Below are positions 2,591-55,475 of a stretch of 64,000 nucleotides of DNA, in pieces (the first letter of the stretch is position 1; each line of letters starts with the position of its first letter). A model generated the notes under the pieces. It worked only from the letters and a program-made list of their open reading frames with translations, was not told where the DNA came from and ran no database searches. The stretch comes from Escherichia coli (lineage in GTDB: Bacteria > Pseudomonadota > Gammaproteobacteria > Enterobacterales > Enterobacteriaceae), in assembly GCF_045037415.1 (NCBI RefSeq), contig NZ_CP173438.1; one strand, written 5' to 3'. A program made the position numbers and the translations under genes.

Positions 2591-2621
2591 AACAGCATTC
2601 CCGTATGGGAATGCTGTTTTC
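2591..2621 (+). terminator. Rho-independent terminator after sinI-like gene
   Basis: Hairpin acagcattccc-gtat-gggaatgctgt followed by TTTT. Confidence 0.6.
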
Positions 2622-2692
2622 CGCCTGTTTTGCTTAGCGACGCGTTAAGCAAAACGGGTTGACGTTTTGTTTATCATGCTGGAGTTTTCTAC

Positions 2693-5600
2693 ATGTCGGT
2701 ATGTCTGAAACCAGGAAAAATCATTGTGCTTCTGGGCATGTTGGCAGCCTTTATGCTGTCTGACTTTGCACGGGCAGAGGTGGAATGGCAGACATATCCT
2801 GGTTCTACAGGCGAGTTTAACGGTACAGTTCCTATTGCCGATAGCGCCAGCGTACCCGTTTATCAGGGAAGCGTTCAGCTTGATCCTGCTGCATCTCATG
2901 ATGTGGCGTTTTCTGCTAAACCGAATGAATTTAGCGTTGACGATGACGCTGCTAACCTGATAGTTGCTAATCCTCAGGACAGTGAAGGCGACCAGTTTTC
3001 TACACCACCTGCGCTGCGCTGGGAAAACCAGACGCCGCCGACCGTCAGTCTGGTGTGGGCGGATGCCGCCACGCCGGATACGCCGCTCAATCCACAGCCC
3101 ATCGCCAACCGCAGCTTTTGCGCGCAAGGTCTGGCCGGGCGTTCGCTGGTGGCCTGGCCACAGATTGATGCGCAGCAGACCATTCCACTGCTTTATCTGC
3201 TGACCTCGACCGGTTATCCCTATGAGGGGACGGTGGTGCTGGCTGACCAGAAAGTGACGCTGAATATCGCGCCCGCGCAGGGCGATTTAATTTCGGTGAG
3301 CGCCAGTGGTTATAACGAAACGCTCGGCGCGGCAAAAACCACCGTTGGCGGCACTATCACGCTGACCGTCACCACCAAAGATTGTCAGGGTAACGTCGCG
3401 GGTAATATTCCATTTATTATCAAGCGTAAAGATGCCCAAAACCGTCAGGGCGCGGTAAATAATACCGCGCCGGTGGTGCTGGATAGCACCGAGTTAACGA
3501 CGACGGTAACCGAGTATCGTGGCACATCGGATGCTAACGGTACGGCAACCATCACGGTGACCCAGCCTAACGGCCCCGGTGTTAAAACGCCGCTGGTAGT
3601 CGGCATTTCCGGCATTGCACAAACCAGTGAGGCGGCGGTGATCTTTACCGTGCTCACCAGCCCGGACGTGGCGCAGGCCACGATGTGGGGCCATATGGCG
3701 GAGACGGTGGAAGCCCATGGTTACACGTTCAGTAGACCAAAACTGGCGGCGGAAGTCAGTAACGAAAATGCCACGGTCGTCGATCACAATGAAACCTGGT
3801 CCACCTTTACCTGGAGCGGCGCAGATAGCCATTGCACCGTGCTGCCGGGCATGCGCCACTTCGGCGCACTGGCGACGGTGATTCCCTCCACGGTACAGAC
3901 TGTGCTCGGCTGGCCGATGCAGGGCGATTATTACTGGTCATCGCTGGCGGGGCTTACCGGGCAGCACCATGCGGCAGATGTCTCTAACCGTGGCGAAACG
4001 CAGAAGCCGGACAGCACCACGTTCCTCGTGAGCTGCGTGGATAAGCCCGCGCCTGACGTCGAGCCGAAAATCGTCCTCACGCCAGAAAACTATGATGACA
4101 CGGCGCAGGCGATGAAAGCGAAGGTGGGCGAGGATGCGACGATGCGTCTGGCCATCACCGACACGAAAAACAACGATCAACCGCTGGCGTATTACTACTT
4201 CTCGCTACATCTGGATGATGGCGTCAATCGTAAGAATCAAACCGACACTGCCTGGGAAGCCCATCCGGTACAGATTGCTGGCGGCAGTAATTTTCGCCAG
4301 GTCGACGCACATACCTATGAAGGCATGACCGACGCCAACGGCCAGGCTTCGCTCACCCTGAGCCAGCCCGGCGGCGCGGGGGTGAAAACCCATATCACGG
4401 CAAGAATGCGCAGCGATTTTAACGCCACAGATGCCAAAGATGTGATTTTTACCGTAATCACCAGCCCGGACAGCGACAAAGCGCGGATGTGGGGCCATAT
4501 GCGCGGCATTATTGAGTCCGGCAGTTTGTATAAACGCCCGTTGCTGGCGGATGAAACCGAGCATGAATTGGGAACAGTGCGGGAAAATAACGAAGACTGG
4601 GCGCTCTACGATCAAAACACCAGTATGCAGGCGGAATGCGGCGTCGGTCATATACCGCGCCAGAGCTCACTGGAAAGCCTGTTTTCAGCCCATCCCGGTA
4701 ACGCGATTGGTACTGAATATGGCTGGCCCACTGCACAACAGGGCTATTTAAGCGCGGTGGAGCAAGCCACGCATTCATCGGTGGATCTGGGGAACGGGAG
4801 CGTCGACAGCTATTCCGGCTTTAAGCCGAATTACCTCTCCTGTTCGGGTAATGAGATGGTAGCGAATGTTGAAGTCAGCACCGATCATGATGTGTCTGTT
4901 GGCACCCAAGCGCAAGCCAAAGTGGGTGACACCATTGTGATGACCGTGCGTACGATTAACTCGCTCAATAATATCCCTGTACCCTTTACTGCATTCACCA
5001 TTACCAAAGGTATGGGGTATAACCGAGCGGGGCAGGTGAGCGGGTTTGATGACCCGAGCAGTGGTGCAATCACGATGGATAACACGCAATACGGCACATC
5101 ACAGTCATCGAAGGTTTATGCGGGAATAACCGATGCCCGGGGCGTGGCGACGGTCGAGATTAAGCAACCACAGGGCGTCGGGCTAAAAACGGTGCTGAGC
5201 GTAACGCCGGTAAATTCCTACCTGCCGAATACCGTTAACTACAGCGTTATTTTTACTACCCCAACCAGCCCGGACGTTACCGGCGCGCAGATGTGGGGCC
5301 ATATGGATGAAACGATCACCGTTGATTCATCAACCTTTACCCGGCCTAAACTGGCGTCGGAAGTCGCCAGCCCGGACGGAACCCTGACCGAAAATAACGA
5401 AATCTGGGCGCGCGTGAGCCAGGCCAATACGTCCAGTACCAGTAAAGGTGGCTGCGACACCAATATGTTGCCACGTCGTTCCCAGCTAAGTGCGCTGTAT
5501 AACGCCAACAGTGGTAACGCGGTGCAAACGGCGCACGGTTGGCCAACACAGCGTCAGCCTTACTGGAGCAACTCACCGGCAGATAAAACTCCACACTTTT

Positions 5601-8600
5601 TCACGATAGCGCTGAACGATGGCGCACAAACTATTGGCGGCGATACGCCGGTTTACGTCAGTTGCCTGAAGACGGCGAACAAACCTGCCAGCAGCATTAC
5701 GCTGGAGGTGGTTGATAAAGCGCAATGGAATACCGGGAATAGCGCGGCAACGCTGAAAAAAGGCGAGACGCTACAGGTTAAAGTGACGGTAAAAGACGCA
5801 CAGGGCAACGCGTTAGCGGATATGCCATTTACCCTCAATCGCGGTGATGGCTATACCCGTAGCGGCGAAAAACATGTGGCGGGCAGCGGCGATGCGCTGG
5901 TTGCGCCGGTGGTAGTCAATGGCGGGCTGGCAGATGAAACCACGTTGAACGACACTGCAACGGTGTATACCGCCATGACCGACAATGACGGCAGCAAAAT
6001 TCTCAATATTACCCGCCCGGATACTCACGGCACCAAAACGGCGCTGACGGCAATGCTTTACTCTGATGCGACGAAAAAATCCAGCATCGACACAATCTTT
6101 ACGGTGGTGACCAGCCCGGATAGCCGCCTGGCAAAAATGTGGGGACATATGCCGGAAACGGTGACTGCTGCGGACGGTACGGTATTTAAGCGCCCGCTGT
6201 TGTTGAAGGAACTGGCCTATCAGACTGGGCGAACATCAACGTCTGAAGACAATGAAAACTGGGCGTTGTTTAACATTAATTATGCAAGTTTTTCCACGAC
6301 GTACAGCGGCTGTGGAACCAACTATATTCCGACTCAGGCCGGTCTGACGTCACTGTTTGCTAATAATGCGGGCAACACCATGAAAACCGTGCAGGGCTGG
6401 CCGGTGGCAACGCGCTATTTATCCAACACTTCCGACAACGGCAGCATGGAGCAGCGTAACTACAAGGCGGTAGATCTCAGCAATGGCACGAGTGCGGCAG
6501 TGTCATCAACGACGCTGGAGCTGCTGACCTGCCAGACCGCGCCGATAGCCGCGGTGAGCCAAATCCTGCTGGAAGCGGCAGATCCGGTGACGCTGGATAC
6601 CACCTATAACGTGGTAAAAGCGAAAAAAAGCGAAGAATCCGTGGTGCGCGTCATCACCAAAGATGCGCAAGGCAACCTTGTGGGCAATACGGCATTTATC
6701 CTGACGCGAGCCAACAGTGTAAGTCGGGCTAATTCATCGGCGACGATGAGTGTGGGCGCGCTGACGGTGACGGATGCGTGGGGAAATACGCGAAATAATT
6801 TCCAGTCAACGAGTGAAACCATTTACGGCGTGACCGGTGCCGACGGGTCAACGACATTTACCCTAAAACAGGATAACAGTACCGGGTTAAGAACCGATCT
6901 CACGGCAAAACTGGATACGTCCAGCAGCGTCAAGGCGATGCTACCGGTGGTCTTTACCGTCGTGACCAGCCCGGATTCGCCAAAAGCGAATTTTTGGGGA
7001 CATATGGCCGAAACGGTGACGGCCTCCGATGGTTCGGTTTATAAGCGACCGTTGCTGTTTGGCGAGCTTACCAACAACTATGCACGATATAGCACGTTTG
7101 AGAACGGTGAAAGTTGGGCAAGATTCACCTCGACTCAGTCGGCTGACACCAGCATGAATGGGTGTGGTACAGATTATATGCCAACGCTGGATGGTCTGAA
7201 GTCTTTGTATGACGCCAATAGAGGTAATGCGATGAATACGGTACAGGGATGGCCGGTAAATATGAGTTATCTCACCAATACCCCGAGTAATACACAAACA
7301 GGGAGCCGTTACTACAATGTGGTGCAACTAAATTCTGGCGCAGTTTCGCAAATCGTATCCACCGTGCTGGCGTTACAAACCTGCCGTACAACGCCGTTGA
7401 TGACTGCCAGCCAGATTACGCTGGAAGCCTCAGACCCCGGGCAGTTTGTCAGCATTGACAGCACACTTAGCGCCGTCAAAGCGAAGAAGGGGGATGAGGT
7501 GTCGATCCGCATTTCGACTAAAGATGCGCAGGGGAATTTAGTCGGCAATACGCCGTTTGCCCTGAAACACGCGAACTCGATCAATCGTCAGAATGTGACG
7601 TCATCGCAGAAAGTGTCAGTCACGACTGCGGCGGGTGCGACGGTGGATACCAGTGCAACGACCATCCTGTATGGTGTAACAGGGCCAGATGGAACCACTA
7701 CGATGACGCTCCGACAGGATGCTTCCACTGGGTTAAGAACCGACTTTTATGCTCTATTAAACGATACTGGCGTGTCGTCGGACACCTTGTCGGTGATCTT
7801 TACCGTCACCACCAGCCCGGATACGCCGCTGGCGACCAATTGGGGCCATATGGCGGAAACCTTTACCAGCAGCGAAGGCGTCACCTTCAAACGGCCTTTC
7901 CTCAAAGCCGAACTCTCTGGCGGTACGGCGAAAACGGCCAATAATGAAGTCTGGTCGCTCCTGACCGCGACTGAGAAAGCGGACGTCAGCAAGGCTGGGT
8001 GTGATGAGGCGTATCAACCGCTGACGACTGATATGCAGGGGCTGTATGTCGATTATCCCAATGGTCAACTGGCAACGGTGCTCGGCTTGCCGACTGCTGC
8101 AGGGAACTGGTGGGATTATGACATGATGGCGGTAGCGGGCGGTAGCTGGAGTAACCAGGCGTTTGTTCCGGGAAATGGTCAGTTGATTCAGGCATCGTCC
8201 AGCTATACGGCGATAGTGATGTGTTTGGTAGAGCCTCATACGGAAGCAGTCACAATAGAGCTTACCTCAACGGCGCAGGATGCAGCAAAATCGCTCAGCA
8301 ATGATGGACGACCGAGCGCTGTAGCGAAGAAAGGTGAGCTGATTCCGTTGACGGTGACCGTGCGTGATAGCGCCGGGAACCCGATGCCATATGCCGACTT
8401 TACCCTTTCGCGTGAAACGACGCTGGATCGCGCGAAAGCAACCGTTAACACGAGTGCAGACGATCTTACCGTAACGGCATTGGTTCCGGTGAGTAGGGAT
8501 AGCGTGTTGACAGCAAGTGGAGCAAAAACTCTCGCAACGACGGGCAGTGATGGCACAGCCACCTTTGAGGTTGGGCAGTACTCTACTACCGGGTTGGCGA

Positions 8601-10774
8601 CGCCGTTAACCGTGACGCTGGCGCGTGATACAACGAAAGTCGCCACGCTGGATGTTATCTACACGGTGATTACCAGCCCAGATTCACCGAGTGCTAAATT
8701 CTGGGGGCATATGCCGGACACCTTTACCAGTTCGGCGGGCGTCACCTTCAAACGACCCCTGCTGAAAACCGAAACCAGCTCAGGCTTATCGATTAGTTCT
8801 AACGGCGAAGTTTGGTCGTATATGAGCAACTTGCAAAATTTAACATCTACAGATTGCCCACTCGAGAATCAACCGCGCAGTAAGGAACTGTTGGATTTGT
8901 ATAGTGATCATCCGAACGGCGCAATAATGACTGACCTTGGGTTACCGATGAATGCGGGTAACTGGTGGGCTTATGATATGGCCATACTGGGTACAACAAC
9001 GTGGTCTTATCAGACTGTCAGCCTGAGAACAGGAGCTATCGCGAAGAATTCTGCAACCAACGCACTGATGCTCTGTCTGGCGCAGCCGCATCCGGCAGGC
9101 GTTAGCGTAACATTGACGTCATCCGCACTGGATGACGCCAGAACCCTCAGCAATGGCGGCCGACCTAGCGCGTCAGTGAAAAAAGATAACCCATTGCCAA
9201 TTGTGGTTATGGTCAAAGATCGTGATGGCAACCCGCTGGCGGGCGAAGCGATAACGCTCAGGCGTGATAATGCGATGAGCCGCTCAGGAACCATTGTAAA
9301 CACGGCAGCAAATGTGATGGTATTGACGGAACTGGCACCCGTGTCGGCAACATTCACTCTCGCCTCACACGGCACGCAATGGCTTGGTTTTACCGGCAGC
9401 GATGGTACGGCGATATTCAATGTTGAACAGCCTGATACTGTCGGCCTGGCAACACCGTTTACCGCCATCCTGGCACGTGATACGGAAACCACCACTGTCC
9501 TTGATGCGATCTTCACCGTTGTCACCAGCCCTGATTCCGCAATGGCGGCCTACTGGGGTCATATGCCGGATACGGTAACGGCAGAAAACGGTGTGGTCTT
9601 TGAAAGACCTAAATTGTGGAAAGAGCTGCCGTCGACATCAGGGGTTAGCAAGGTCAATAGTAACAATGAAGTCTGGCCCGTGTTTAACGCAACGCAGAGG
9701 GCTGACAGCAATCTCAGCCCTTGTGAAGCGGCACGTCGGCCATTGAGTGATGATTTAGAATCGCTCTATGCTCGCTATCCGGGGAACACGCTGACGACAC
9801 AAATCGGTTGGTCTACGCAGTATACATGGTGGGCGCTGGATAACTGGCTGGGAGGCAGTAATCCGCAGGTAGTCGGTCTGAATAATGGTTCAGCGTGGGG
9901 GACGGTGAATACCGCGTATCAAGGGTGCCTGGTTAACCCGCGTGCGACTGTCTCCAGCGTCACGTTGACATCGACGGCACTGGATAGCAGTACGCAGGCG
10001 GCGAAGGTGAAAAAAGGCGACGCCGTTCCCGTTGTCGTTACCGTGAAAGACAGTGTCGGGAAACCAGTGCCGAATATTTCGTTTATCCTCAAACGTGGTG
10101 ACGCTACGCCGCGTAATAGCGGGGCGACGTTGTATGGCGATGTGGATACAATGGACGATTTGACTGTACAACCCTCATCCGGTGCGGCAGTCACGTTGGC
10201 TGATAGCGGGAATACAATCGATGGAGTTACTGGAGCAGACGGTACAGCAAGTTTTACCGTTGGTCAGGATAATACGCCAGGATATAAAACGCCGTTGACG
10301 GTGACGCTGACGGATAACGCCACAATAACGGCGACGCTGGACACGATTTTCACCGTGCCGACCAGTCCTAATGTCGCCACGGCGTATTTCTGGGGTCATA
10401 TGGCGGATACCGCCACGGTAAGTGGCAAGATGCTGCATCGCCCGCTATTAAAATCGGAGTTGCCGTCAGGGGTTACCGCAGCAGCAACGCCCAATGTGAA
10501 TAATGAAACCTGGGCGCTGGCACATGTTATAGATTCCACTAAATGGGATGTCGCACGGCAGTGCGGTAGTATGAATAACGTGCCGAGCAGTGCCGAATTA
10601 CAAACATTACACTCCGGCTTTAGCACATTGGGATGGCCGTCATCGATAAGCTTCCCGTATTTATCTACTGATAAGGCTGGATCGTTCTATTGTGGTGTTG
10701 AGGAAGGCTCTGGCAGTCTCAACTGTGGCATTCAGCCTGCGAAAACGCCGGGGTTTGCAACCTGTTTCCAATAA
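2693..10774 (+). CDS. ratA: Giant repetitive Ig-like-domain surface protein (2693 aa), RatA-like
   Basis: Signal peptide at N-terminus; about nine tandem repeats of roughly 280 aa, each ending in a conserved FTVxTSPD..A..WGHM(A/P)(E/D)T motif; adjacent to xseA as in CS54-type islands. Confidence 0.65.
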
Positions 10775-13891: not shown

Positions 13892-15469
13892 ATGACGGAA
13901 AACATTCATAAGCATCGCATCCTCATTCTGGACTTCGGTTCCCAGTATACTCAACTGGTTGCGCGCCGCGTGCGTGAACTGGGGGTTTACTGCGAACTGT
14001 GGGCGTGGGATGTGACAGAAGCACAAATTCGTGACTTCAATCCAAGCGGCATTATTCTTTCCGGCGGCCCGGAAAGTACTACTGAAGAAAACAGCCCGCG
14101 TGCGCCGCAGTATGTCTTTGAAGCAGGCGTACCGGTATTCGGCGTTTGCTATGGTATGCAGACCATGGCGATGCAGTTGGGCGGTCACGTTGAGGCTTCT
14201 AATGAACGTGAATTTGGCTACGCGCAGGTTGAAGTCGTAAACGACAGCGCACTGGTTCGCGGTATCGAAGATGCTCTGACCGCAGATGGTAAACCGCTGC
14301 TGGACGTCTGGATGAGCCACGGCGATAAAGTTACCGCTATCCCGTCCGACTTCGTCACCGTAGCCAGCACCGAAAGCTGCCCGTTTGCCATCATGGCCAA
14401 CGAAGAAAAACGCTTCTATGGCGTACAGTTCCACCCGGAAGTGACTCACACCCGCCAGGGTATGCGCATGCTGGAGCGTTTTGTGCGTGATATCTGCCAG
14501 TGTGAAGCCCTGTGGACGCCAGCGAAAATTATCGACGACGCTGTAGCCCGCATCCGCGAGCAGGTAGGCGACGATAAAGTCATCCTCGGCCTCTCTGGTG
14601 GCGTGGATTCCTCCGTAACCGCAATGCTGTTGCACCGCGCTATCGGTAAAAACCTGACTTGCGTATTCGTCGACAACGGCCTGCTGCGTCTCAACGAAGC
14701 AGAGCAGGTTCTGGATATGTTTGGCGATCACTTTGGTCTGAACATTGTTCACGTACCGGCAGAAGATCGCTTCTTGTCAGCGCTGGCTGGCGAAAACGAT
14801 CCGGAAGCAAAACGTAAAATCATCGGGCGCGTTTTCGTTGAAGTATTCGATGAAGAAGCGCTGAAACTGGAAGACGTGAAGTGGCTGGCGCAGGGCACCA
14901 TCTACCCTGACGTTATCGAATCTGCTGCTTCTGCAACCGGTAAAGCACACGTCATCAAATCTCACCACAACGTGGGTGGGCTGCCGAAAGAGATGAAGAT
15001 GGGCCTGGTTGAACCGCTGAAAGAGCTGTTCAAAGACGAAGTGCGTAAGATTGGTCTGGAGCTGGGCCTGCCGTATGACATGTTGTACCGTCACCCGTTC
15101 CCGGGACCAGGCCTTGGCGTTCGTGTTCTGGGGGAAGTGAAGAAAGAGTATTGTGACCTGCTGCGCCGTGCTGACGCCATCTTCATTGAAGAACTGCGTA
15201 AAGCGGACCTGTACGACAAAGTCAGCCAGGCGTTCACCGTCTTCCTGCCAGTACGTTCCGTTGGCGTAATGGGCGATGGTCGTAAGTATGACTGGGTTGT
15301 CTCTCTGCGTGCTGTCGAAACCATCGACTTTATGACCGCACACTGGGCACATCTGCCGTACGATTTCCTCGGTCGAGTTTCCAACCGCATTATCAATGAA
15401 GTGAATGGTATTTCCCGCGTGGTGTATGACATCAGCGGCAAGCCACCAGCAACTATTGAGTGGGAATGA
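13892..15469 (+). CDS. guaA: GMP synthase (glutamine-hydrolysing)
   Basis: 525-aa protein [36 protein letters not shown]..; glutamine amidotransferase plus ATP-pyrophosphatase (SGGVDSSV) domains. The last codons (IEWE-stop) lie within the prophage att core. Confidence 0.95.
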
Positions 15470-15471
15470 TT
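15455..15471. repeat. attL core (17-bp direct repeat) overlapping guaA stop codon
   Basis: Identical 17-mer at 55459-55475. Confidence 0.8.
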
Positions 15472-19868: not shown

Positions 19869-20686
19869 ATGTACATATCCTGTTTGCGTGCCCACTCAGG
19901 GCGTTTAATGATTTCCACACCGCCCCATTCATCATTGATGCGGCATTCGTGATAGGTATTCAGATCCCGGCGGAACAGAGCGTGCCCGGCATCGACATCC
20001 TGCGCATCCAGCTCGAACACGCGTACCGGATACCGACCACAATCAATGCTTTCGCTCACGGCAAGAAAGAAAAAACCATGCGGCTGACCAGTAACCCTCA
20101 TTGCGCCTTCGCGGTACATTGCGTCCTGCACGTGGTAGCGGAATTCCTCGATGTGGCGTGCAAAACGGTCCATATCTGCAACCTTTTTCACGTCGACGAT
20201 CACGTTGTGCTCGTTCAGCCATTTGTCTGGACGAATTCGGCACAACTCCCCCGTCTCTTCATCGTTCCAGTACATTGATGCTTCGCAGTAACCAGGTGCT
20301 TCCAGCATCCAGCGTGCCGCCGGGTGAGCCATTGCGCTATCACGCATCAGCTCCAGTTTCCGCCACTGCTCGGCATCAAGTACCGTAATCCCCATATCCG
20401 CCACATCACGAAGAAATTCCTCTTCGTCAGCTTTACCTTGTTTCGTCCGACGATCGAATTTCGGTGAAACAATGAAGCGTTTGTCGAACTCTCCAGGCTC
20501 CAGAAGCAGACAGTGCAATGCGGTTCCCATATCCAGTGCAGACTTTTTCTCTTCGTCTTCTGGTGCTGCCTGAACCCATTTAAGAAGCGCCGGATTCTTG
20601 GCAACCATGTCCAGTTGCGACTTACTCACGCCGTCACCGGCGTGGTAGTCTTCGTTGCTGATGTCGAAATAAATTCCCGGTTTCAT
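19865..20686 (-). CDS. PD-(D/E)XK exonuclease (phage recombination exonuclease, YqaJ/RecE-like)
   Basis: 273 aa immediately upstream of RecT in the same operon; conserved D..E.K-type nuclease signature region (..VIVDVKKV..). Confidence 0.6.
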   Translation of the reverse strand: MKPGIYFDISNEDYHAGDGVSKSQLDMVAKNPALLKWVQAAPEDEEKKSALDMGTALHCLLLEPGEFDKRFIVSPKFDRRTKQGKADEEEFLRDVADMGITVLDAEQWRKLELMRDSAMAHPAARWMLEAPGYCEASMYWNDEETGELCRIRPDKWLNEHNVIVDVKKVADMDRFARHIEEFRYHVQDAMYREGAMRVTGQPHGFFFLAVSESIDCGRYPVRVFELDAQDVDAGHALFRRDLNTYHECRINDEWGGVEIIKRPEWARKQDMYI

Positions 20687-21156: not shown

Positions 21157-21171
21157 TTACCGTTGAGGTAA
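21157..21171. promoter_or_regulatory. Palindromic operator-like motif TTACC-GTTGA-GGTAA at the leftward early promoter
   Basis: Perfect copy; abuts a -10-like element of a minus-strand promoter whose -35 TTGACA is at 21194-21199. Confidence 0.6.
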
Positions 21172-21218
21172 TAATTATGCGTATATGGTTTGATGTCAAT
21201 AGATATGAGTTAAAAAAA

Positions 21219-21233
21219 TTACCCGTTAGGTAA
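21219..21233. promoter_or_regulatory. Palindromic operator-like motif TTACC-CGTTA-GGTAA
   Basis: Perfect copy 62 bp from the copy at 21157; paired arrangement. Confidence 0.6.
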
Positions 21234-21290: not shown

Positions 21291-21875
21291 TTATTGTTTG
21301 TTTTTTTCGTTCTGGTTGATGACAAATTCAATGTAACTTTCGATCTTTGCTTTCTCGGTTTCGGGTAACAATGCGTAGCGTGAGCGGTCATAGTTGATAG
21401 TCGCAGGGTCGTGCGGGTGAATCAGTAGTTCATATCCGTGACGCCCGAATGCGGATGCAACATTCTCCAGGGTGGAAATGGAAACGCTGACCTCATTGTT
21501 TAACAGGCGGCTGATTGTCACCTGGGCGACGCCGGATGCGCGGTGAAGTTTTCCCTGAGTTGAAAGGTCGCGGCTTTCACTCATCCAGCGTTCCAGGTTG
21601 TGAGCTGCCAGCTGACCAATGTCGCTTGGGCCGACAGGCTGAAAACCTTCCTGAGAAAGCGAGCGATCGATATCAAGCCAGTTACGGGGTTTATTGGCGG
21701 CAGCTTCAATTTTTCGCGCAACCTGGTCGCCGATAACCTTCTTGCCAAGAGCCCAGCGGTTTACCAGATTTGCCTGAGTTCCAAGTTTTTCTGCCATCCG
21801 CGTCTGAACACCATTGAATTCACGGTCGATCAAGTCGTTGAGATTTTGCCTGCGGACGTCCTGGATACTTTTCAT
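21291..21875 (-). CDS. Prophage repressor-like regulator with two HTH modules and no peptidase S24 domain
   Basis: 194 aa; two HTH-like segments (..TRMAEKLGTQANLVNRW.. and ..ASGVAQVTISRLLNNE..); divergent from the Cro-like gene; no Ser/Lys autocleavage domain. Confidence 0.6.
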   Translation of the reverse strand: MKSIQDVRRQNLNDLIDREFNGVQTRMAEKLGTQANLVNRWALGKKVIGDQVARKIEAAANKPRNWLDIDRSLSQEGFQPVGPSDIGQLAAHNLERWMSESRDLSTQGKLHRASGVAQVTISRLLNNEVSVSISTLENVASAFGRHGYELLIHPHDPATINYDRSRYALLPETEKAKIESYIEFVINQNEKNKQ

Positions 21876-21930: not shown

Positions 21931-21945
21931 TTACCCAACAGGTAA
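21931..21945. promoter_or_regulatory. Palindromic operator-like motif TTACC-CAACA-GGTAA in the repressor/cro intergenic region
   Basis: Perfect copy. Confidence 0.6.
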
Positions 21946-21951
21946 ATGCAC

Positions 21952-21990
21952 CCCATAGGTAACTATCCTTGATTTTTGTTACCTTATGGG
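21952..21990. promoter_or_regulatory. Second inverted repeat in the immunity region (cccataggtaac-N14-gttaccttatggg) overlapping the putative rightward promoter -35
   Basis: Half-sites GGTAAC/GTTACC in outward orientation; candidate rightward promoter -35 TTGTTA 21976-21981 and -10 TATTAT 21999-22004. Confidence 0.45.
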
Positions 21991-22029
21991 TGAATATTTA
22001 TTATCTGAAATAAATATCAGGCAATAGCT

Positions 22030-24341: not shown

Positions 24342-24695
24342 ATGAGAAAACAGATACAGGCTCTTGGTCGACTCAAAACAGGTCAGATGAACAAAACAGA
24401 ATCTGCGTATTGCCAGCACCTTGAGCTGCGTAAACGTGCAGGGGAAATCGCCTGGTATCGATTCGAGGGTATCAAGCTACGGTTAGCTGACAACTGCTTC
24501 CTGACTGTAGATTTTGCCGTGATGTTGGCTGACGGGCAGTTGGTGATGGTGGACGTTAAGGGAAGTAAGTCAGTCTTTACTGACGATGCGAGAGTCAAGA
24601 TGAAGGTTGCGGCAGACAGCTATCCGTTTGTCTTTCAGGTTGCTTATCCAAAACCTAAAAAGCTCGGTGGTGGATGGGAGGTTGAGGAACTATGA
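24342..24695 (+). CDS. DUF1064-like phage protein
   Basis: 117 aa MRKQIQALGRLKTGQMNKTESAYCQHLELRK..; recalled as a conserved phage family of unknown function. Confidence 0.5.
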   Translation: MRKQIQALGRLKTGQMNKTESAYCQHLELRKRAGEIAWYRFEGIKLRLADNCFLTVDFAVMLADGQLVMVDVKGSKSVFTDDARVKMKVAADSYPFVFQVAYPKPKKLGGGWEVEEL

Positions 24696-31945: not shown

Positions 31946-33625
31946 ATGGCGGAAACAACTAAAGAGCGATTGAACAAACAGTTCGCACAACTTGAAAGCG
32001 AGCGTCAGTCGTTCGAGCCGCACTGGCGCGAGTTGAGTGATTACATCAACCCGCGTGGTTCCCGCTTTCTGACTTCTGAGGCCAACCGTAACGATCGGCG
32101 CAATACACGCATTATTGATTCGACCGGGACTATGGCGGCGCGCACTCTCGCCAGCGGCATGATGTCAGGCATCACAAGCCCCGCGCGTCCGTGGTTTCGC
32201 CTGGCTACGCCAGATCCTGAAATGATGGATTATGGCCCTGTTAAGTTGTGGCTTGAGGCGGTGCAGAACCGCATGAACGATATGTTCAATAAGTCGAATC
32301 TCTATCAGTCTCTGCCGCAGTTATACGGAAGCCTCGGCACATACAGCACTGGTGCAATGGCAGTGCTGGAGGATGACGAGGACATCATTCGCACAATGCC
32401 ATTCCCGATAGGCAGTTACTACCTGGCTAACTCACCTCGTGGCAGTGTGGACACCTGTTTTCGCAAGTTCTCTATGACTGTTCGTCAGCTTGTTCAGGAG
32501 TTCGGGCTAAATAACGTCAGCGAATCCGTAAAAAGCATGTGGGAAAGCGGCACCTACGAGAAGTGGATTGACGTGATGCATTCGGTTTACCCGAACATTG
32601 ACCGCGATACATCGAAGCTGGATAGCAAGAACAAGCCATTCAAATCGGTTTATTACGAGGTTGGTGGCGATAACGACAAGTTGTTGCGTGAGTCCGGATT
32701 TGATGAGTTTCCAATTATGGCTCCGCGCTGGGAAGTTAACGGCGAAGATGTTTATGGATCATCATGCCCGGGTATGCTGGCGCTTGGACCTGTTAAGGCA
32801 TTGCAGCTTCTCCAGAAGCGCAAGTCGCAGTTGATTGATAAAGCCACCAATCCGCCGATGGTTGCTCCGACTTCCCTCAAGAATCAGCGCGCCTCCCTTC
32901 TTCCTGGCGACATCACGTATATCGATCAGATTACTGGTCAGGATGGCTTCAGGCCTGCTTATCTGGTTAACCCCAGTACAGCAGATTTGGTAGCAGACAT
33001 TCAGGACACTCGTCAAATCATTAACAGCGCCTACTTTGTCGATCTGTTCATGATGTTGCAGAACATCAATACCCGCTCGATGCCTGTTGAAGCGGTGATC
33101 GAAATGAAAGAAGAAAAACTTCTGATGTTGGGGCCGGTTCTGGAGCGCCTGAACGACGAATGTCTTAATCCTCTCATTGACCGCGCTTTCTCGATGATGG
33201 TGCGTAAAAACATGCTGCCGCCACCGCCAGACGTGATGGAAGGTATGCCCCTGAAGGTCGAATACATTTCCGTCATGGCTCAGGCGCAGAAGTCTATCGG
33301 CCTGTCCAGTCTGGCGTCCACGGTTAACTTCATTGGTCAACTTGCGCAAGCGAAACCAGAAGCTCTCGACAAACTCAACGTTGATCAGGCGATCGATGCA
33401 TTCGCTGATATGTCCGGAGTGTCTCCAACCGTCATTGTTCCGCAGGAACAGGTTGAGCAGGCTCGCCAGCAACGGGCACAGCAGCAACAGCAACAACAAA
33501 TGATGGCGGTGGGGATGGCGGCGGCACAGGGTGCCAAGACGCTAAGCGAAGCTAAAACTTCGGATCCGAGTGTTTTGACAGCTATGGCGAATGCAGTTAG
33601 TGGTCAGGGTGGGCAATCACAATGA
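31946..33625 (+). CDS. Portal protein (T7-type head-to-tail connector family)
   Basis: 559 aa; size, position after terminase and Q/A/M-rich C-terminal tail resemble podovirus gp8-type portals. Confidence 0.8.
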   Translation: MAETTKERLNKQFAQLESERQSFEPHWRELSDYINPRGSRFLTSEANRNDRRNTRIIDSTGTMAARTLASGMMSGITSPARPWFRLATPDPEMMDYGPVKLWLEAVQNRMNDMFNKSNLYQSLPQLYGSLGTYSTGAMAVLEDDEDIIRTMPFPIGSYYLANSPRGSVDTCFRKFSMTVRQLVQEFGLNNVSESVKSMWESGTYEKWIDVMHSVYPNIDRDTSKLDSKNKPFKSVYYEVGGDNDKLLRESGFDEFPIMAPRWEVNGEDVYGSSCPGMLALGPVKALQLLQKRKSQLIDKATNPPMVAPTSLKNQRASLLPGDITYIDQITGQDGFRPAYLVNPSTADLVADIQDTRQIINSAYFVDLFMMLQNINTRSMPVEAVIEMKEEKLLMLGPVLERLNDECLNPLIDRAFSMMVRKNMLPPPPDVMEGMPLKVEYISVMAQAQKSIGLSSLASTVNFIGQLAQAKPEALDKLNVDQAIDAFADMSGVSPTVIVPQEQVEQARQQRAQQQQQQQMMAVGMAAAQGAKTLSEAKTSDPSVLTAMANAVSGQGGQSQ

Positions 33626-33918
33626 CAGATTACGAAGACGATCAACTGAAAGAAGAAAACGCCCGTAAGCAACGTGACATGGCGCAGCGTGAAATTGATG
33701 ACATTCGCTTTGTCATGAGCAGTGAACAAGGGCGTCGCGTTGTCTGGTCGGTGCTGGAGAAAGGCCGTGTGTTTTCCGCTATCTCACCGATGGACGCTAT
33801 GGCAATGGCATTTAATGAGGGGCAACGCAATCTGGCGCTGGAACTGTTTCAGCGCGTTATGGCGCATTGCCCTGAACAGTATTTGAAGATGGCCAAAGAG
33901 GCCAGTGAACAGGAGTGA
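33622..33918 (+). CDS. Hypothetical head-module protein
   Basis: ORF coupled to portal. Confidence 0.4.
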   Translation: MTDYEDDQLKEENARKQRDMAQREIDDIRFVMSSEQGRRVVWSVLEKGRVFSAISPMDAMAMAFNEGQRNLALELFQRVMAHCPEQYLKMAKEASEQE

Positions 33919-47844: not shown

Positions 47845-47929
47845 TATTAGGAATTGTATTGTTCGGAAGAATAATAAAATAACTAGTTAATTTGTGGATT
47901 GGTGCTGTTTTTCCATGATAGGGGTAATT

Positions 47930-48310
47930 ATGAGAAAAGTATTTTTGATTTTTGGATTTATGCTTCTCGTTGGATGCCAGTCAGCTGCACAGTTTGAAAG
48001 AAATATGCTTACGTGGCGCGGGCAGAGTATAGACGCAATGGTTCAGCAGTGGGGGTATCCTCAGGGAGAGCTTACATCTCCAGATGGAAACAGAGTGTAT
48101 GTTTACTCAAGCTCTGGTAGTTATAACGTACCACAAACCACAACGTATAATACTACGTCTAATCTAATTGGTAATACTATATATTCAAACACATACGCAA
48201 CAACTGATGGCGGTTATACACTCCATTTCAGTTGCTCTGTTTACGTTGAGTTTGGTGCTGATAAGATTATTAAAAATGTTACATGGCGCGGTAATAATTG
48301 CGTTGCGTGA
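47930..48310 (+). CDS. Lipoprotein (accessory gene)
   Basis: SD aggggtaa; lipoprotein signal peptide MRKVFLIFGFMLLVGC with lipobox LVGC; Ser/Thr/Tyr/Asn-rich mature part. Confidence 0.6.
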   Translation: MRKVFLIFGFMLLVGCQSAAQFERNMLTWRGQSIDAMVQQWGYPQGELTSPDGNRVYVYSSSGSYNVPQTTTYNTTSNLIGNTIYSNTYATTDGGYTLHFSCSVYVEFGADKIIKNVTWRGNNCVA

Positions 48311-48341
48311 CATGTCACAGGCCGCTTTCGCGGCCTTGTTT

Positions 48342-48503
48342 TTAACGAATGCCACCGCCACCCGGGCGGGAATCCGCAGAACGCCCACCGCAGCGGGAGC
48401 CGTCAGCAGCAGTGTCGCTGTCGTGCTGACAACGACCGGCAAAGGCCTGAGTTGAAGCTACCAGAGACAACAAAACGAACAGTGCAGCAAATGCTTTTTT
48501 CAT
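48342..48503 (-). CDS. Small secreted peptide candidate (53 aa), low confidence
   Basis: MKKAFAALFVLLSLVASTQAFA signal-peptide-like start followed by a Gly/Arg/Asp-rich tail; lies in a short GC-rich segment. Confidence 0.25.
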   Translation of the reverse strand: MKKAFAALFVLLSLVASTQAFAGRCQHDSDTAADGSRCGGRSADSRPGGGGIR

Positions 48504-48574
48504 TGTGAAATTTCCATCTATAAGCCACCTCAATGTGGCGTCAATGAGTGTAGCACTGACTTTTGTTTCGTCCA

Positions 48575-48597
48575 CAAAAAAGCCCGCGCTGCGGGCT
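48575..48597 (-). terminator. Rho-independent terminator after the 210-aa unknown gene
   Basis: On minus strand agcccgc-agc-gcgggct followed by TTTTTT. Confidence 0.6.
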
Positions 48598-48601
48598 TCT
48601 A

Positions 48602-49234
48602 TTAATGCAGTTTATCTTTGCTTATAACCAGTAGTCTGTGGGTATGCACATCTTTATCACTGCCCCAACAGAAATCAGCCCACTGGCTATAGAAATCATC
48701 CCATGATGTCATGAAGCTAAGAGGTCTATCTTCTTCAGAGCCATCTGAAACGTATACATTATATCCTGGGGTGTTTATAGCCCAAGAAATCATTCTTTCC
48801 CAGAATCTTCTCCCATCGATTGTTTGTTGCTCATCAGATACAACGATCGCATATTGCTCTAGGAAGAACTGAAAAAAAATCTGAGGCAAACCATGAACAG
48901 CACGGTCATGAATAACATTAGGCGTACGCCATACCATGATCTGCGTACATGTTCTTTTGGCTTCGACGATATCTTCCCGAAAGATTAACTTAACCGCATA
49001 CACCGTTTCTGGAGTATCGCTGGTAGTAATCATTCTGTAATGATCGCCATTACAAGATTTTACAAGGCGATAACCATAAGGTGTTGTGAATCCCGGAAGA
49101 ACGAAATCAACCACACCTTTCGCTAAGTAGCTTTCGGTGTGACTAGTGTTCTTCTCAGACATGTTCAGTTTTCTATCGAAATCTGCTTCTGGGATAATGT
49201 ATGGCATCGCTTTTCTTGTTGTATTTGTTCTCAT
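48602..49234 (-). CDS. Hypothetical protein (210 aa) of unknown function in the accessory locus
   Basis: SD gggagga before ATG; own promoter region with palindromic motif and own terminator; no recognisable family. Confidence 0.5.
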   Translation of the reverse strand: MRTNTTRKAMPYIIPEADFDRKLNMSEKNTSHTESYLAKGVVDFVLPGFTTPYGYRLVKSCNGDHYRMITTSDTPETVYAVKLIFREDIVEAKRTCTQIMVWRTPNVIHDRAVHGLPQIFFQFFLEQYAIVVSDEQQTIDGRRFWERMISWAINTPGYNVYVSDGSEEDRPLSFMTSWDDFYSQWADFCWGSDKDVHTHRLLVISKDKLH

Positions 49235-49293: not shown

Positions 49294-49308
49294 TTACCCT
49301 TGAGGTAA
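49294..49308. promoter_or_regulatory. Palindromic operator-like motif TTACC-CTTGA-GGTAA
   Basis: Perfect copy 60 bp upstream of the 210-aa gene start. Confidence 0.55.
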
Positions 49309-49380
49309 TAGTACGCTATTCACCCCCAGTCTGCAATCTGTACAGAATTATTTAAAGGCACATCCCTGTGCCGCCGCCCG

Positions 49381-50037
49381 TCAGAAGAACCCTGCCTTGT
49401 CGTTGATGTACTCCGCGTGCGTCTGGATATCACGCAGGCATTTGCTCACACCAACGATGTAGCAGAACATGGTGGTCAGCTCCGCCGCCGCGCCCGATAC
49501 GTCGTGCCCGTCGTCCTGTAACTGGTTCAGCAGATTCATCAGCAGTGAGTTCTCCGTCAGGCCGAGAACACCAGACGGCGAGTGAATCAGGCTGCGGTAG
49601 CCGGGCTTCAGTGGGGCACTGTATTCTTTTTTGTCTTCCAGCTTGATCGCCTCCATAATGGCGGGCATGAAGCCTGACAAGACCTTCTCCACTTTTGTTT
49701 CTTGTTGTCTTAAACGTTTCTCGCATTCAATGAAGTAGCGTCGCACCTGGCGACCTTTTTCGTTACGCTCGACCATCGCCAGCTCTTTGGCTGTATCAAG
49801 GGTGAGGTGGTACTCTTTGCGGTTGTGGCCGCCTCTACCAGATGTTTGCTTTCCCAAATTGGAAAGCAAAATATAGTCTTGATTTTCAATGAATTCGTAT
49901 TCTGATATGCGATTTGTAATCCATGCTGCAAACACCTTTTTAACACCTAAAAAAGCGTGCAGATCGCGGGCATTACAAAGTAGGGCTGTTTCGTTAGATA
50001 TAGTGCCGTTGAATACGGGGATGAGTTGAGCGTTCAT
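49381..50037 (-). CDS. Antirepressor (AntA-like N-terminal domain plus KilAC-like C-terminal domain)
   Basis: N-terminus ..[36 protein letters not shown].. matches the AntA/AntB pattern as recalled; C-terminal about 80 aa homologous to the downstream 85-aa protein. Confidence 0.65.
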
Positions 50038-50310
50038 GATGGCGTCTCCACTTAGCGAATTACATCACCACCGCTGAGAACCAATCAGATGGTGGTGAAC
50101 TGAACGGAGTTGGTCTTACCGGCCTAAGTGGTACCGGCGTCCTTTCGGACCCCCATTCAGCCCACCATAATTCTGGCATGACTGTGCTATACGCATAAAA
50201 AAACCACGTCTGGCGTGGTATGCGCCACTTAGTAATCCGGGAGAACCAATCCCGGCACTGGATTTTGCCAGTGCCCGATTACTATGGCACAAGAGGAGTG
50301 CGATGTAAAT

Positions 50311-50325
50311 TTACCGCAAAGGTAA
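50311..50325. promoter_or_regulatory. Palindromic operator-like motif TTACC-GCAAA-GGTAA nested inside a larger palindrome
   Basis: Perfect copy flanked by ggagtgc (50294-50300) and gcactcc (50332-50338). Confidence 0.55.
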
Positions 50326-50356
50326 ATATAAGCACTCCATTTGGTAATTTCAAACC

Positions 50357-50614
50357 TTATCTGGTTTGTTTTCGTAATTGTTCGGCACAATAGTCGAGAT
50401 GTGTTTGCAGATCCTGCATAGACATCTGTGAGCTGGTGACGTAGTTAATCAGTGCAGTCAGTTCGGCAAGTGGGCCATCGACATTAAATCCATCCTTATC
50501 GAGATCCCGGAGTAATTTCATCAAGTGCGATCCCTCCACCAGTGACCTGACGCCTCCCGGCGTGTGAATCCTTTCGGTAAATCCGTCTTCCAGTGGATAG
50601 TGATACTGCTGCAT
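50357..50614 (-). CDS. Small antirepressor-like protein (KilAC-like domain only, 85 aa)
   Basis: MQQYHYPLEDGF..; about 45 percent identical to the C-terminal domain of the 218-aa antirepressor (shared ..IH(S/T)P.GV..L.E.S.LM.LL..L..DG..V.G..AELT..Y..DxQTH..Y); LexA box 22 bp upstream. Confidence 0.6.
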   Translation of the reverse strand: MQQYHYPLEDGFTERIHTPGGVRSLVEGSHLMKLLRDLDKDGFNVDGPLAELTALINYVTSSQMSMQDLQTHLDYCAEQLRKQTR

Positions 50615-50635
50615 CTTATCTTCTCCATGCAATAA

Positions 50636-50651
50636 CTGTATATTTATACAG
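50636..50651. promoter_or_regulatory. LexA (SOS) box CTGT-N8-ACAG
   Basis: aaCTGTATATTTATACAGta, near-perfect match to the E. coli LexA consensus; overlaps a TATAAA -10-like element of the minus-strand promoter. Confidence 0.75.
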
Positions 50652-50690
50652 TAGCAAATAATTTGTTTGCTATCCAGCACGTTTTGCAAA

Positions 50691-50705
50691 TTACCTGAAA
50701 GGTAA
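50691..50705. promoter_or_regulatory. Palindromic operator-like motif TTACC-TGAAA-GGTAA between antirepressor-like gene and tailspike
   Basis: Perfect copy in the divergent intergenic region. Confidence 0.55.
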
Positions 50706-50809
50706 TATCTATTCGTATTTACAGCCTTTCTATCCATATGTGGTTTTCCAGGTAATAGAATAACCAGATATGCGGCGCAACGGGTGCTGCGACTATCTGG
50801 AGATTTAAC

Positions 50810-55458: not shown

Positions 55459-55475
55459 ATTGAGTGGGAATGATT
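55459..55475. repeat. attR core (17-bp direct repeat)
   Basis: Identical to 15455-15471; followed by host-type guaA-distal sequence and terminator. Confidence 0.8.

Follow-up and report, generated by a model that had tools for sequence, protein, structure and literature searches.

An SPC32H-type antirepressor gene with a predicted LexA box, followed by an isrK-C4 RNA cassette, in a phiV10-like prophage of Escherichia coli

The 64,000-nucleotide (nt) stretch of Escherichia coli DNA analysed here, referred to as the window (contig NZ_CP173438.1 of NCBI RefSeq assembly GCF_045037415.1), contains a Uetakevirus (phiV10/epsilon15-like) prophage, apparently intact, in which two antirepressor genes lie next to the tailspike gene. 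The first, ant, encodes a small antirepressor (Ant) of 85 amino acids (aa) and is preceded by a predicted LexA box; the second encodes a large antirepressor of 218 aa and is separated from ant by a cassette of two small RNAs, isrK and C4. The prophage repressor, Rep, is encoded 28.5 kb away from ant. The damage-responsive (SOS) arm of this locus is, with high probability, the Ant/Rep switch of the Salmonella phage SPC32H residing in a phiV10/epsilon15-like prophage, and an RNA-controlled second arm lies downstream of it. Coordinates of all features are collected in Table 1.

Small antirepressor, repressor and LexA box

The small Ant reading frame starts at an ATG with GGAG 8 nt upstream, and its product matches chain E ("Anti-repressor protein", from SPC32H) of PDB entry 5D50, with about 88% identity across residues 2-84 (E 4e-47); a tblastn comparison with the SPC32H ant gene gave 88.0% identity. 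Identities of small Ant were 97.6-100% among the E. coli Uetakevirus records listed and 84-88% to the Salmonella phage proteins. It belongs to phrog_450, which is labelled "unknown function" in PHROGs, and no NCBIfam model was found for either ant protein. A preliminary description of this DNA had proposed homology between the 85-aa protein and the C-terminal domain of its AntA-type neighbour of 218 aa, and this was borne out: the two align over 74 aa, covering residues 137-210 of the larger one, with 42% identity (E 6e-16), and the AntA domain (PF08346) was detected by Pfam in the larger protein (residues 22-92, E 8.2e-26) and not in the smaller. The label "KilAC-only" given there to the small gene had to be dropped. 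The Pfam KilA-C/ANT model (PF03374) matched neither protein at E<=10, and a KilA-C identity for the shared domain was accordingly rejected; judged by its homology, the domain common to both proteins is the SPC32H Ant fold of phrog_450. A 126-aa reading of the small ORF (open reading frame), beginning at an ATG at 50737, was also rejected, its start lying upstream of both the LexA box and the promoter and being contradicted by homologues, which start MQ(R)QYH.

The gene and its tailspike neighbour are transcribed in divergent directions, as in the SPC32H annotation. The ORF map agrees with the earlier placement of ant between tail genes and tailspike, far from the immunity region; this is the ancestral position of ant in the genus and not an oddity.

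Rep matches chain A of the same structure ("Repressor", 5D50) over residues 1-190 with E 4e-42, and the crystal structure of the C-terminal domain (5D4Z) with E 4e-20. A Pfam search placed a helix-turn-helix (HTH) domain of the HTH_3 family at residues 106-147 (E 5e-5) and a weaker HTH at about 21-67, and found no match to the S24 peptidase domain, consistent with the two HTH modules and missing S24 domain described earlier. Rep is 100% identical to the Rep proteins of phiV10 and ZX5 and 41.8% identical to that of SPC32H, with the helix NLVNRW of the N-terminal HTH conserved between the window and SPC32H proteins. As a separate observation, Ant, at 88% identity to its SPC32H counterpart, has diverged far less than its presumed target.

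The E. coli LexA consensus is a 20-nt sequence, TACTGTATATATATACAGTA. The box AACTGTATATTTATACAGTA proposed in the preliminary description was recovered exactly at 50634-50653 and differs from this consensus at 2 positions. It was the sole site in the window with three or fewer mismatches, where 0 would be expected (none appeared in 100 shuffles). The looser pattern CTGT-N8-ACAG was found four times in the window, the box included; the three other occurrences, at 7667, 31090 and 35632, were rejected as LexA boxes, having 8-11 mismatches to the consensus. In an alignment of the regions upstream of ant from six phages, the box occupies the same columns throughout. Its CTGT and ACAG arms do not vary among the E. 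coli phages (phiv142-3, phiV10 and TL-2011b) and SPC32H, whereas the spacer does, and the Klebsiella relative reads ATGT...ACAG. The window box aligns column by column with the SPC32H box, TACTGTATGTTTATACAGTG. It lies 20 nt from the small ant ATG, which is downstream of it on the minus strand. The intergenic region is divergent, and the box is also located upstream of the tailspike ATG, at a distance of 157 bp. A candidate ant promoter was placed by eye and by alignment with SPC32H, where the homologous positions read TAGTCA-N18-TATGTT, and its -10 element, TATAAA, falls within the box.

RNA cassette, large antirepressor and dispersed palindromes

The 320-bp gap separating the two ant genes is occupied by isrK and C4, which by their sequence matches constitute a cassette of the P1-immI or Gifsy-1 IsrK type; this was missed in the preliminary description. 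The isrK match scored 60.9 bits against a gathering score of 50 and C4 scored 61.2 bits against 45 over the full model (1-87). The c4-a1b1 model (RF03163) also overlapped isrK, at 36.2 bits, under its gathering score of 46.7 (E 1.5e-7). The start predicted from the isrK promoter-like site coincides with the 5' end of the isrK match, and the leader/C4 region is strongly structured (folding z = -6.06). No terminator was detected between the small ant stop codon and isrK, either by a terminator scan or by reading of the sequence. Given the presence of the isrK and C4 RNAs, the 218-aa protein is to be regarded as a separately controlled second arm and not as a mere neighbour of ant.

In the second C4 hairpin the loop, CCACTTAG, is an exact complement, over 8 nt, of the octamer CTAAGTGG, which occurs in two copies, one in isrK (50232-50225) and one in the leader of the 218-aa gene (50055-50048). 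The sequence GATTGGTTCTC was likewise found both in an isrK loop (50250-50241) and in the leader (50086-50076). Both of these b targets in the window carry the same extra T compared with GATTGGTCTC in phiv142-3, with the C4 segment AGACCAA unchanged, a concerted difference of the two targets. The layout of isrK, C4 and antirepressor was also found in phiv142-3, phiV10, ZX5, the Klebsiella phage ST512-KPC3phi13.3 and Gifsy-1 of Salmonella; TL-2011b has the cassette too, about 1 kb away from its small ant gene. The C4 loop, isrK site and leader site were observed to covary across four specificity types. They read CCACTTAG, CTAAGTGG and CTAAGTGG in the window and phiv142-3; CCTTTTAG, CTAAAAGG and CTAAAAGG in phiV10, ZX5 and TL-2011b; CCTTTGTAG, CTACAAAGG and CTACAAAGG in the Klebsiella phage; and CGGTGAT, TCACCG and ATCACCG in Gifsy-1. 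In a cross-phage complementarity matrix, cognate pairs reached 7-9 nt with the leader and 6-9 nt with isrK, and non-cognate pairs 3-6 nt. The matrix was computed in Python in place of alignment pair counts because MAFFT placed the window C4 loop one column off the other types. A homology between the 218-aa protein and Gifsy-1 AnrP was rejected (E 0.17), the RNA cassette alone being common to the two loci; since AnrP is unrelated to the 218-aa protein although the RNA layout is shared, the cassette is portable and its payload differs. The 39-codon ORF spanning C4 is the positional counterpart of Gifsy-1 orf45 and P1 icd; any role of it in translational coupling is uncertain.

The 218-aa protein belongs to phrog_377 ("anti-repressor Ant" in PHROGs), and its residues 137-213 match SPC32H Ant (5D50_E, E 8e-14). 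Among its relatives the C-terminal domain is kept and the N-terminal domain is swapped between AntA and Bro-N. ORF4 of ZX5 is such a Bro-N protein, with a single difference from the 218-aa protein over residues 140-218. Over-expression of ZX5 ORF4 was reported to lower the number of lysogens from about 10^9 to 10^6 (about 1000-fold fewer) and rep transcription by 75%, in a functional study that examined the large gene only and overlooked small Ant (PMC9782041). The large (Bro-N) gene of phiV10 (2607-3191 of locus L003) carries a frameshift within the Ant-like C-terminal domain (...LLMNRTTGMMYQARRRS*), and the large antirepressor of the Klebsiella phage is N-terminally short. Because of these two cases the large gene looks like a dispensable partner, with small ant as the conserved one. 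A small leftover ORF, PhiV10p22, follows the frameshifted phiV10 gene. Downstream of the window's 218-aa gene, a hairpin noted by eye (GGCACAGGGATGTGCC) was not called by the terminator scan.

A palindrome, TTACC-N5-GGTAA, was found in ten perfect copies in the window, compared with 0.14 expected. It is the commonest 5+5 palindrome there, all copies lie inside the prophage, and 10/10 are intergenic when judged against the ORF maps. Two copies lie downstream of rep and two more precede the gene at 24342; the rep/cro gap has one (with a further copy at one mismatch), the terminase genes and the portal operon are each preceded by one, and the remaining three are near the ant genes. SPC32H has ten copies at syntenic places, without those at 50311 and 49294: the copy in the ant/tailspike gap has its counterpart at 20013-20027, the rep/cro gap holds two tandem palindromes in the same place, and the pair downstream of rep is syntenic with three copies at 33528-33680. 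The arrangement in which a palindrome abuts the isrK promoter is kept in phiv142-3, phiV10 and the Klebsiella phage ST512-KPC3phi13.3. From its position, its clustering around rep and the NLVNRW helix, TTACC-N5-GGTAA is probably the Rep operator, and the set looks like dispersed operators in the style of P1 C1. The palindrome arms are identical in all relatives examined (E. coli, Salmonella and Klebsiella), and the Reps of the window and SPC32H have the same putative recognition helix, so that asking whether palindrome and Rep type covary gave no information on the operator.

The attachment (att) repeats enclose a 40.0-kb element at the 3' end of guaA, the reported integration site of phiV10, epsilon15 and ZX5 (PMC9782041). 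Compared over a 1.6-kb region around both ant genes, Escherichia phage phiv142-3 shows 98.5% identity to the window, and phiV10, TL-2011b, ZX5 and others show 90-95%, all of them Uetakevirus; the relatives carrying this region include O157-related phages, and at least 80% of it is carried by 78/5,426 complete E. coli genomes. Cargo genes at 47894-49234 separate the last virion gene from the 218-aa gene and encode a 138-aa lipoprotein-like protein, a 77-aa protein with a signal-peptide-like start and a 210-aa phrog_1349 protein. In TL-2011b (228-2440 and 3321-4409 of locus L004), the ant slot also contains a P22-type arc-ant pair together with sar RNA and a gene for a YafO-family toxin, and the small ant gene is separated from the large antirepressor gene by about 1.1 kb, most of which precedes the isrK-C4 cassette. 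The segment preceding the tailspike gene is a hot spot for anti-immunity cargo. The host flank upstream of guaBA contains a very long ORF of 2693 aa at 2693-10774.

Table 1. Features of the antirepressor locus, the repressor region and the prophage, in window coordinates
Feature	Position	Strand	Remarks
Small antirepressor Ant, 85 aa, SPC32H-type	50357-50614	(-)	88% identity to PDB 5D50_E
LexA (SOS) box, predicted	50634-50653	unstranded	AACTGTATATTTATACAGTA; near-consensus
Candidate ant promoter	50643-50672	(-)	-35 TAGCAA (50672-50667), N18, -10 TATAAA (50648-50643)
Prophage repressor Rep, 194 aa, predicted non-cleavable type	21291-21875	(-)	5D50_A match; no S24
Promoter-like site for isrK	50281-50309	(-)	TTTACA-N17-CATAGT with TG extension (promoter scan)
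isrK small RNA (a1/b1 equivalent)	50197-50274	(-)	Rfam RF01394; intrinsic terminator 50219-50203
C4-type antisense RNA	50088-50172	(-)	Rfam RF01695
39-codon ORF	50179-50060	(-)	spans C4; ends 22 nt before the 218-aa ATG
b2 target	50086-50076	(-)	GATTGGTTCTC; faces C4 segment AGACCAA
a2 target	50048-50055	(-)	CTAAGTGG; overlaps the 218-aa Shine-Dalgarno sequence; ends 10 nt before the ATG
Large antirepressor, 218 aa	49381-50037	(-)	AntA N-domain and Ant-like C-terminal domain
Hairpin, then TTTAAAT	49357-49372	(-)	GGCACAGGGATGTGCC; downstream of the 218-aa gene; possible terminator, weak, by eye
Palindrome in ant/tailspike divergent gap	50691-50705		TTACCTGAAAGGTAA; candidate Rep operator; conserved in alignment
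Palindrome at isrK promoter	50311-50325		TTACCGCAAAGGTAA; 1 nt upstream of the -35; candidate Rep operator
Palindrome upstream of 210-aa gene	49294-49308		TTACCCTTGAGGTAA
Candidate operators in rep/cro gap	21931-21993		TTACCCAACAGGTAA at 21931-21945; one-mismatch copy at 21979-21993
Two palindromes downstream of rep	21157-21233		leftward early promoter region
All palindrome copies (15 nt each), start positions	21157, 21219, 21931, 24262, 24324, 28457, 31620, 49294, 50311, 50691		
210-aa gene	48602-49234	(-)	matches phrog_1349 (function unknown); palindrome upstream
Integrase-sized ORF, 418 aa	15662-16918		
att core, repeat bounding the prophage	15455-15471 and 55459-55475		ATTGAGTGGGAATGATT

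Proposed mechanism and competing explanations

How would this locus respond to DNA damage? The assignment of the SOS arm to the SPC32H switch is carried by the homology of both proteins to a crystallised pair, by the LexA box and its conservation, by synteny and by the lack of an S24 domain in Rep. In the proposed mechanism, Rep would maintain lysogeny through its N-terminal DNA-binding HTH and its C-terminal HTH-like oligomerisation domain, and in uninduced cells host LexA would occupy the box covering the ant promoter. DNA damage would activate RecA, LexA would cleave itself, and the 85-aa Ant would be made, bind Rep and strip it from its operators, the palindromes, leading to lytic development. 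LexA binding, the binding of Ant to Rep in the window pair and the resistance of Rep to cleavage are predicted by analogy with the SPC32H system. The preliminary description had likewise predicted induction by a LexA-controlled antirepressor, naming Gifsy-type prophages as the precedent. The SPC32H homologues, the LexA box and the absence of an S24 match support the antirepressor part of that claim, and the precedent has been replaced, the closest system being SPC32H.

Several points weigh against this interpretation. The small ant promoter was not called by a generic promoter scan, which missed it because the -35 matches at 3/6 positions only. The earlier claim that the box covers the -10 therefore stands insofar as the by-eye TATAAA lies inside it; the overlap is plausible, its promoter having been placed by inspection with a weak -35. 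Recognition of Rep by Ant in the window pair is presumed across a Rep identity of 41.8% to the SPC32H protein. Cro or another regulator, in place of Rep, could be the binder of the palindromes. Finally, the literature yielded no experiment in which the small Ant from an E. coli Uetakevirus was examined.

The second arm may be read in two ways. The isrK promoter would drive isrK, C4 RNA and the 218-aa antirepressor; C4 RNA would block translation of the 218-aa gene by pairing with its ribosome-binding site, and isrK, carrying the same targets, would act as a decoy. In a coupled scheme, the cassette would be derepressed once Rep left the palindrome at the isrK promoter, and ant transcripts would in addition read into isrK and deliver the decoy, since no terminator was found that would keep a LexA-controlled ant transcript from entering it. 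With C4 titrated, the large antirepressor would be translated and would reinforce the decision. That both arms form one feed-forward circuit acting on a single Rep, linking SOS sensing to P1-like RNA immunity, is offered as a tentative idea that we consider rather doubtful; if it were true, Rep would be a global repressor like P1 C1, with an operator at every operon. At least as likely, although still rated somewhat short of even, is that the arms are independent and that the large antirepressor is an anti-immunity device with no SOS role, directed at superinfection or related prophages in the manner of P1/P7 Ant. The promoter of isrK itself would allow such independence from ant transcription, the C4 systems of P1 and P7 set heteroimmunity (PMC12197685), the four C4 specificity types occur among relatives sharing Rep, as expected of an immunity determinant, and the N-terminal domains of the large antirepressors are swapped between AntA and Bro-N. 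What speaks for coupling instead is that SOS transcripts should reach the cassette, given the lack of a detected terminator, and that the palindrome at the isrK promoter suggests derepression upon Rep inactivation.

Which of the two proteins is the working antirepressor? It is conceivable that the 218-aa protein fills this role and that the 85-aa protein is an accessory, either a modulator in hetero-oligomers or the decaying remnant of a duplication. In the sole experiment on an E. coli Uetakevirus it was the large protein that was over-expressed, with a drop in lysogeny (PMC9782041), and the shared domain is reported to be tetrameric in SPC32H Ant (PMC9638917), which makes mixed oligomers of the small and large proteins conceivable. 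This explanation is nevertheless improbable in view of the strong conservation of small Ant in both the E. coli and the Salmonella phages, the fact that small Ant works alone in SPC32H, a phage without isrK, C4 and large Ant, and the damage to the large gene in phiV10 and the Klebsiella phage. Least credible of all is the notion that the LexA box is incidental or serves the tailspike gene, with induction through RecA-dependent inactivation of Rep: the box does stand in a divergent region upstream of the tailspike ATG, but it lies much nearer to the ant ATG, over the only plausible -10, and is conserved across genera, and Rep has no S24 domain and a C-terminal domain matching a solved HTH-like tetramerisation fold.

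Retaining the SPC32H-type switch as the preferred reading of the SOS arm, what does the locus add? The SOS arm is not new biology, its orthologue having already been characterised genetically and crystallised; by homology, the SPC32H switch would operate in phiV10-like prophages as well. The practical gain would be the corrected annotation of a predicted SOS-responsive antirepressor: small Ant is a "hypothetical protein" in the E. coli RefSeq records listed, in the ZX5 record, and in most phage records listed outside SPC32H/SPC32N and 65FD/66FD, the name "antirepressor" going to the neighbouring large gene. The locus pairs two domains that are paralogous and predicted to be directed at Rep, one under LexA and the other under C4/isrK in several specificity types, and as a composite it offers a compact natural system for the integration of DNA damage and RNA-based immunity in a prophage. 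We know of no description of an SPC32H-type ant beside a P1-type C4 cassette controlling a paralogous domain, although no targeted literature search was made. The parts are known and their combination is nonetheless worth a bench test.

Comparison with known systems

The Ant/Rep pair of SPC32H was reportedly described by Kim & Ryu (2013, J Virol) and Kim et al. (2016, PNAS). According to secondary literature, SPC32H is induced by a LexA-controlled Ant rather than by repressor cleavage (PMC7380047); the tetrameric Ant binds two Rep dimers and breaks up the DNA-binding Rep tetramer (PMC9638917), with the disruption acting through the C-terminal tetramerisation domain (PMC9986798). The window resembles this Salmonella Uetakevirus (PDB 5D50, 5D4Z) in 1) an orthologous Ant at 88% identity, 2) a full-length Rep homologue without S24, 3) a LexA box at the aligned position over the ant promoter, 4) the same palindrome set, and 5) the placement of ant, divergent and far from rep, with the last internal virion gene on one side and the tailspike gene on the other. 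It differs in that Rep is only 41.8% identical and in that the host is E. coli, with the prophage at guaA; SPC32H, for its part, has neither the isrK-C4-large Ant cassette nor cargo genes downstream of ant.

The immI region of P22 (mnt-arc-ant, sar RNA, gene 16/tailspike gene 9) is likewise an antirepressor region under antisense-RNA control that immediately precedes the tailspike gene of a short-tailed temperate phage, and TL-2011b has an arc/ant/sar set in the ant slot of the window. The proteins are different, however, and sar is not a C4 RNA. P22 ant is not known to be under LexA control. The P22 C2 repressor is RecA-cleavable (PMC7380047).

GfoA/GfhA of Gifsy-1/-3 (Lemire et al., 2011, PMC3121763) and Tum of 186 (Shearwin et al., 1998) are similar to the SOS arm in logic alone. 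In these systems the antirepressor is under LexA repression and acts by protein contact on a non-cleavable repressor, inactivating it (PMC7380047). The Gifsy (lambdoid) and 186 (P2-like) phages differ from the window prophage in phage type, repressor fold and gene position, and no sequence relationship is claimed.

The RNA arm has its closest counterparts elsewhere. In the immI region of P1 and P7 (a1b1-c4-a2b2/icd-ant), c4 RNA acts on the antirepressor operon by blocking its ribosome-binding site, and it sets heteroimmunity (PMC12197685). The window shares with it a C4 RNA with an upstream a1/b1-like element, a C4 loop complementary to the antirepressor ribosome-binding site, specificity types that differ by compensatory change, and a repressor-type operator, a candidate one in the window, at the promoter. 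Unlike in P1 and P7, the payload in the window consists of AntA and an SPC32H-Ant-like domain in place of P1 Ant, and the cassette stands directly behind a paralogue that is predicted to be SOS-controlled. In Gifsy-1, IsrK was found to activate antirepressor translation in trans (Hershko-Shalev et al., 2016, PMC4825925). The IsrK-STnc1160/orf45-AnrP region of that prophage matches the window in its order of isrK with terminator, C4 and antirepressor start, and in the a'/a2 complementarity at the ribosome-binding site; its cassette differs in standing behind a Q antiterminator gene and not behind a LexA-controlled ant. Overall, the window locus helps to reinterpret IsrK and STnc1160 of Gifsy-1 as an a1b1/C4 pair.

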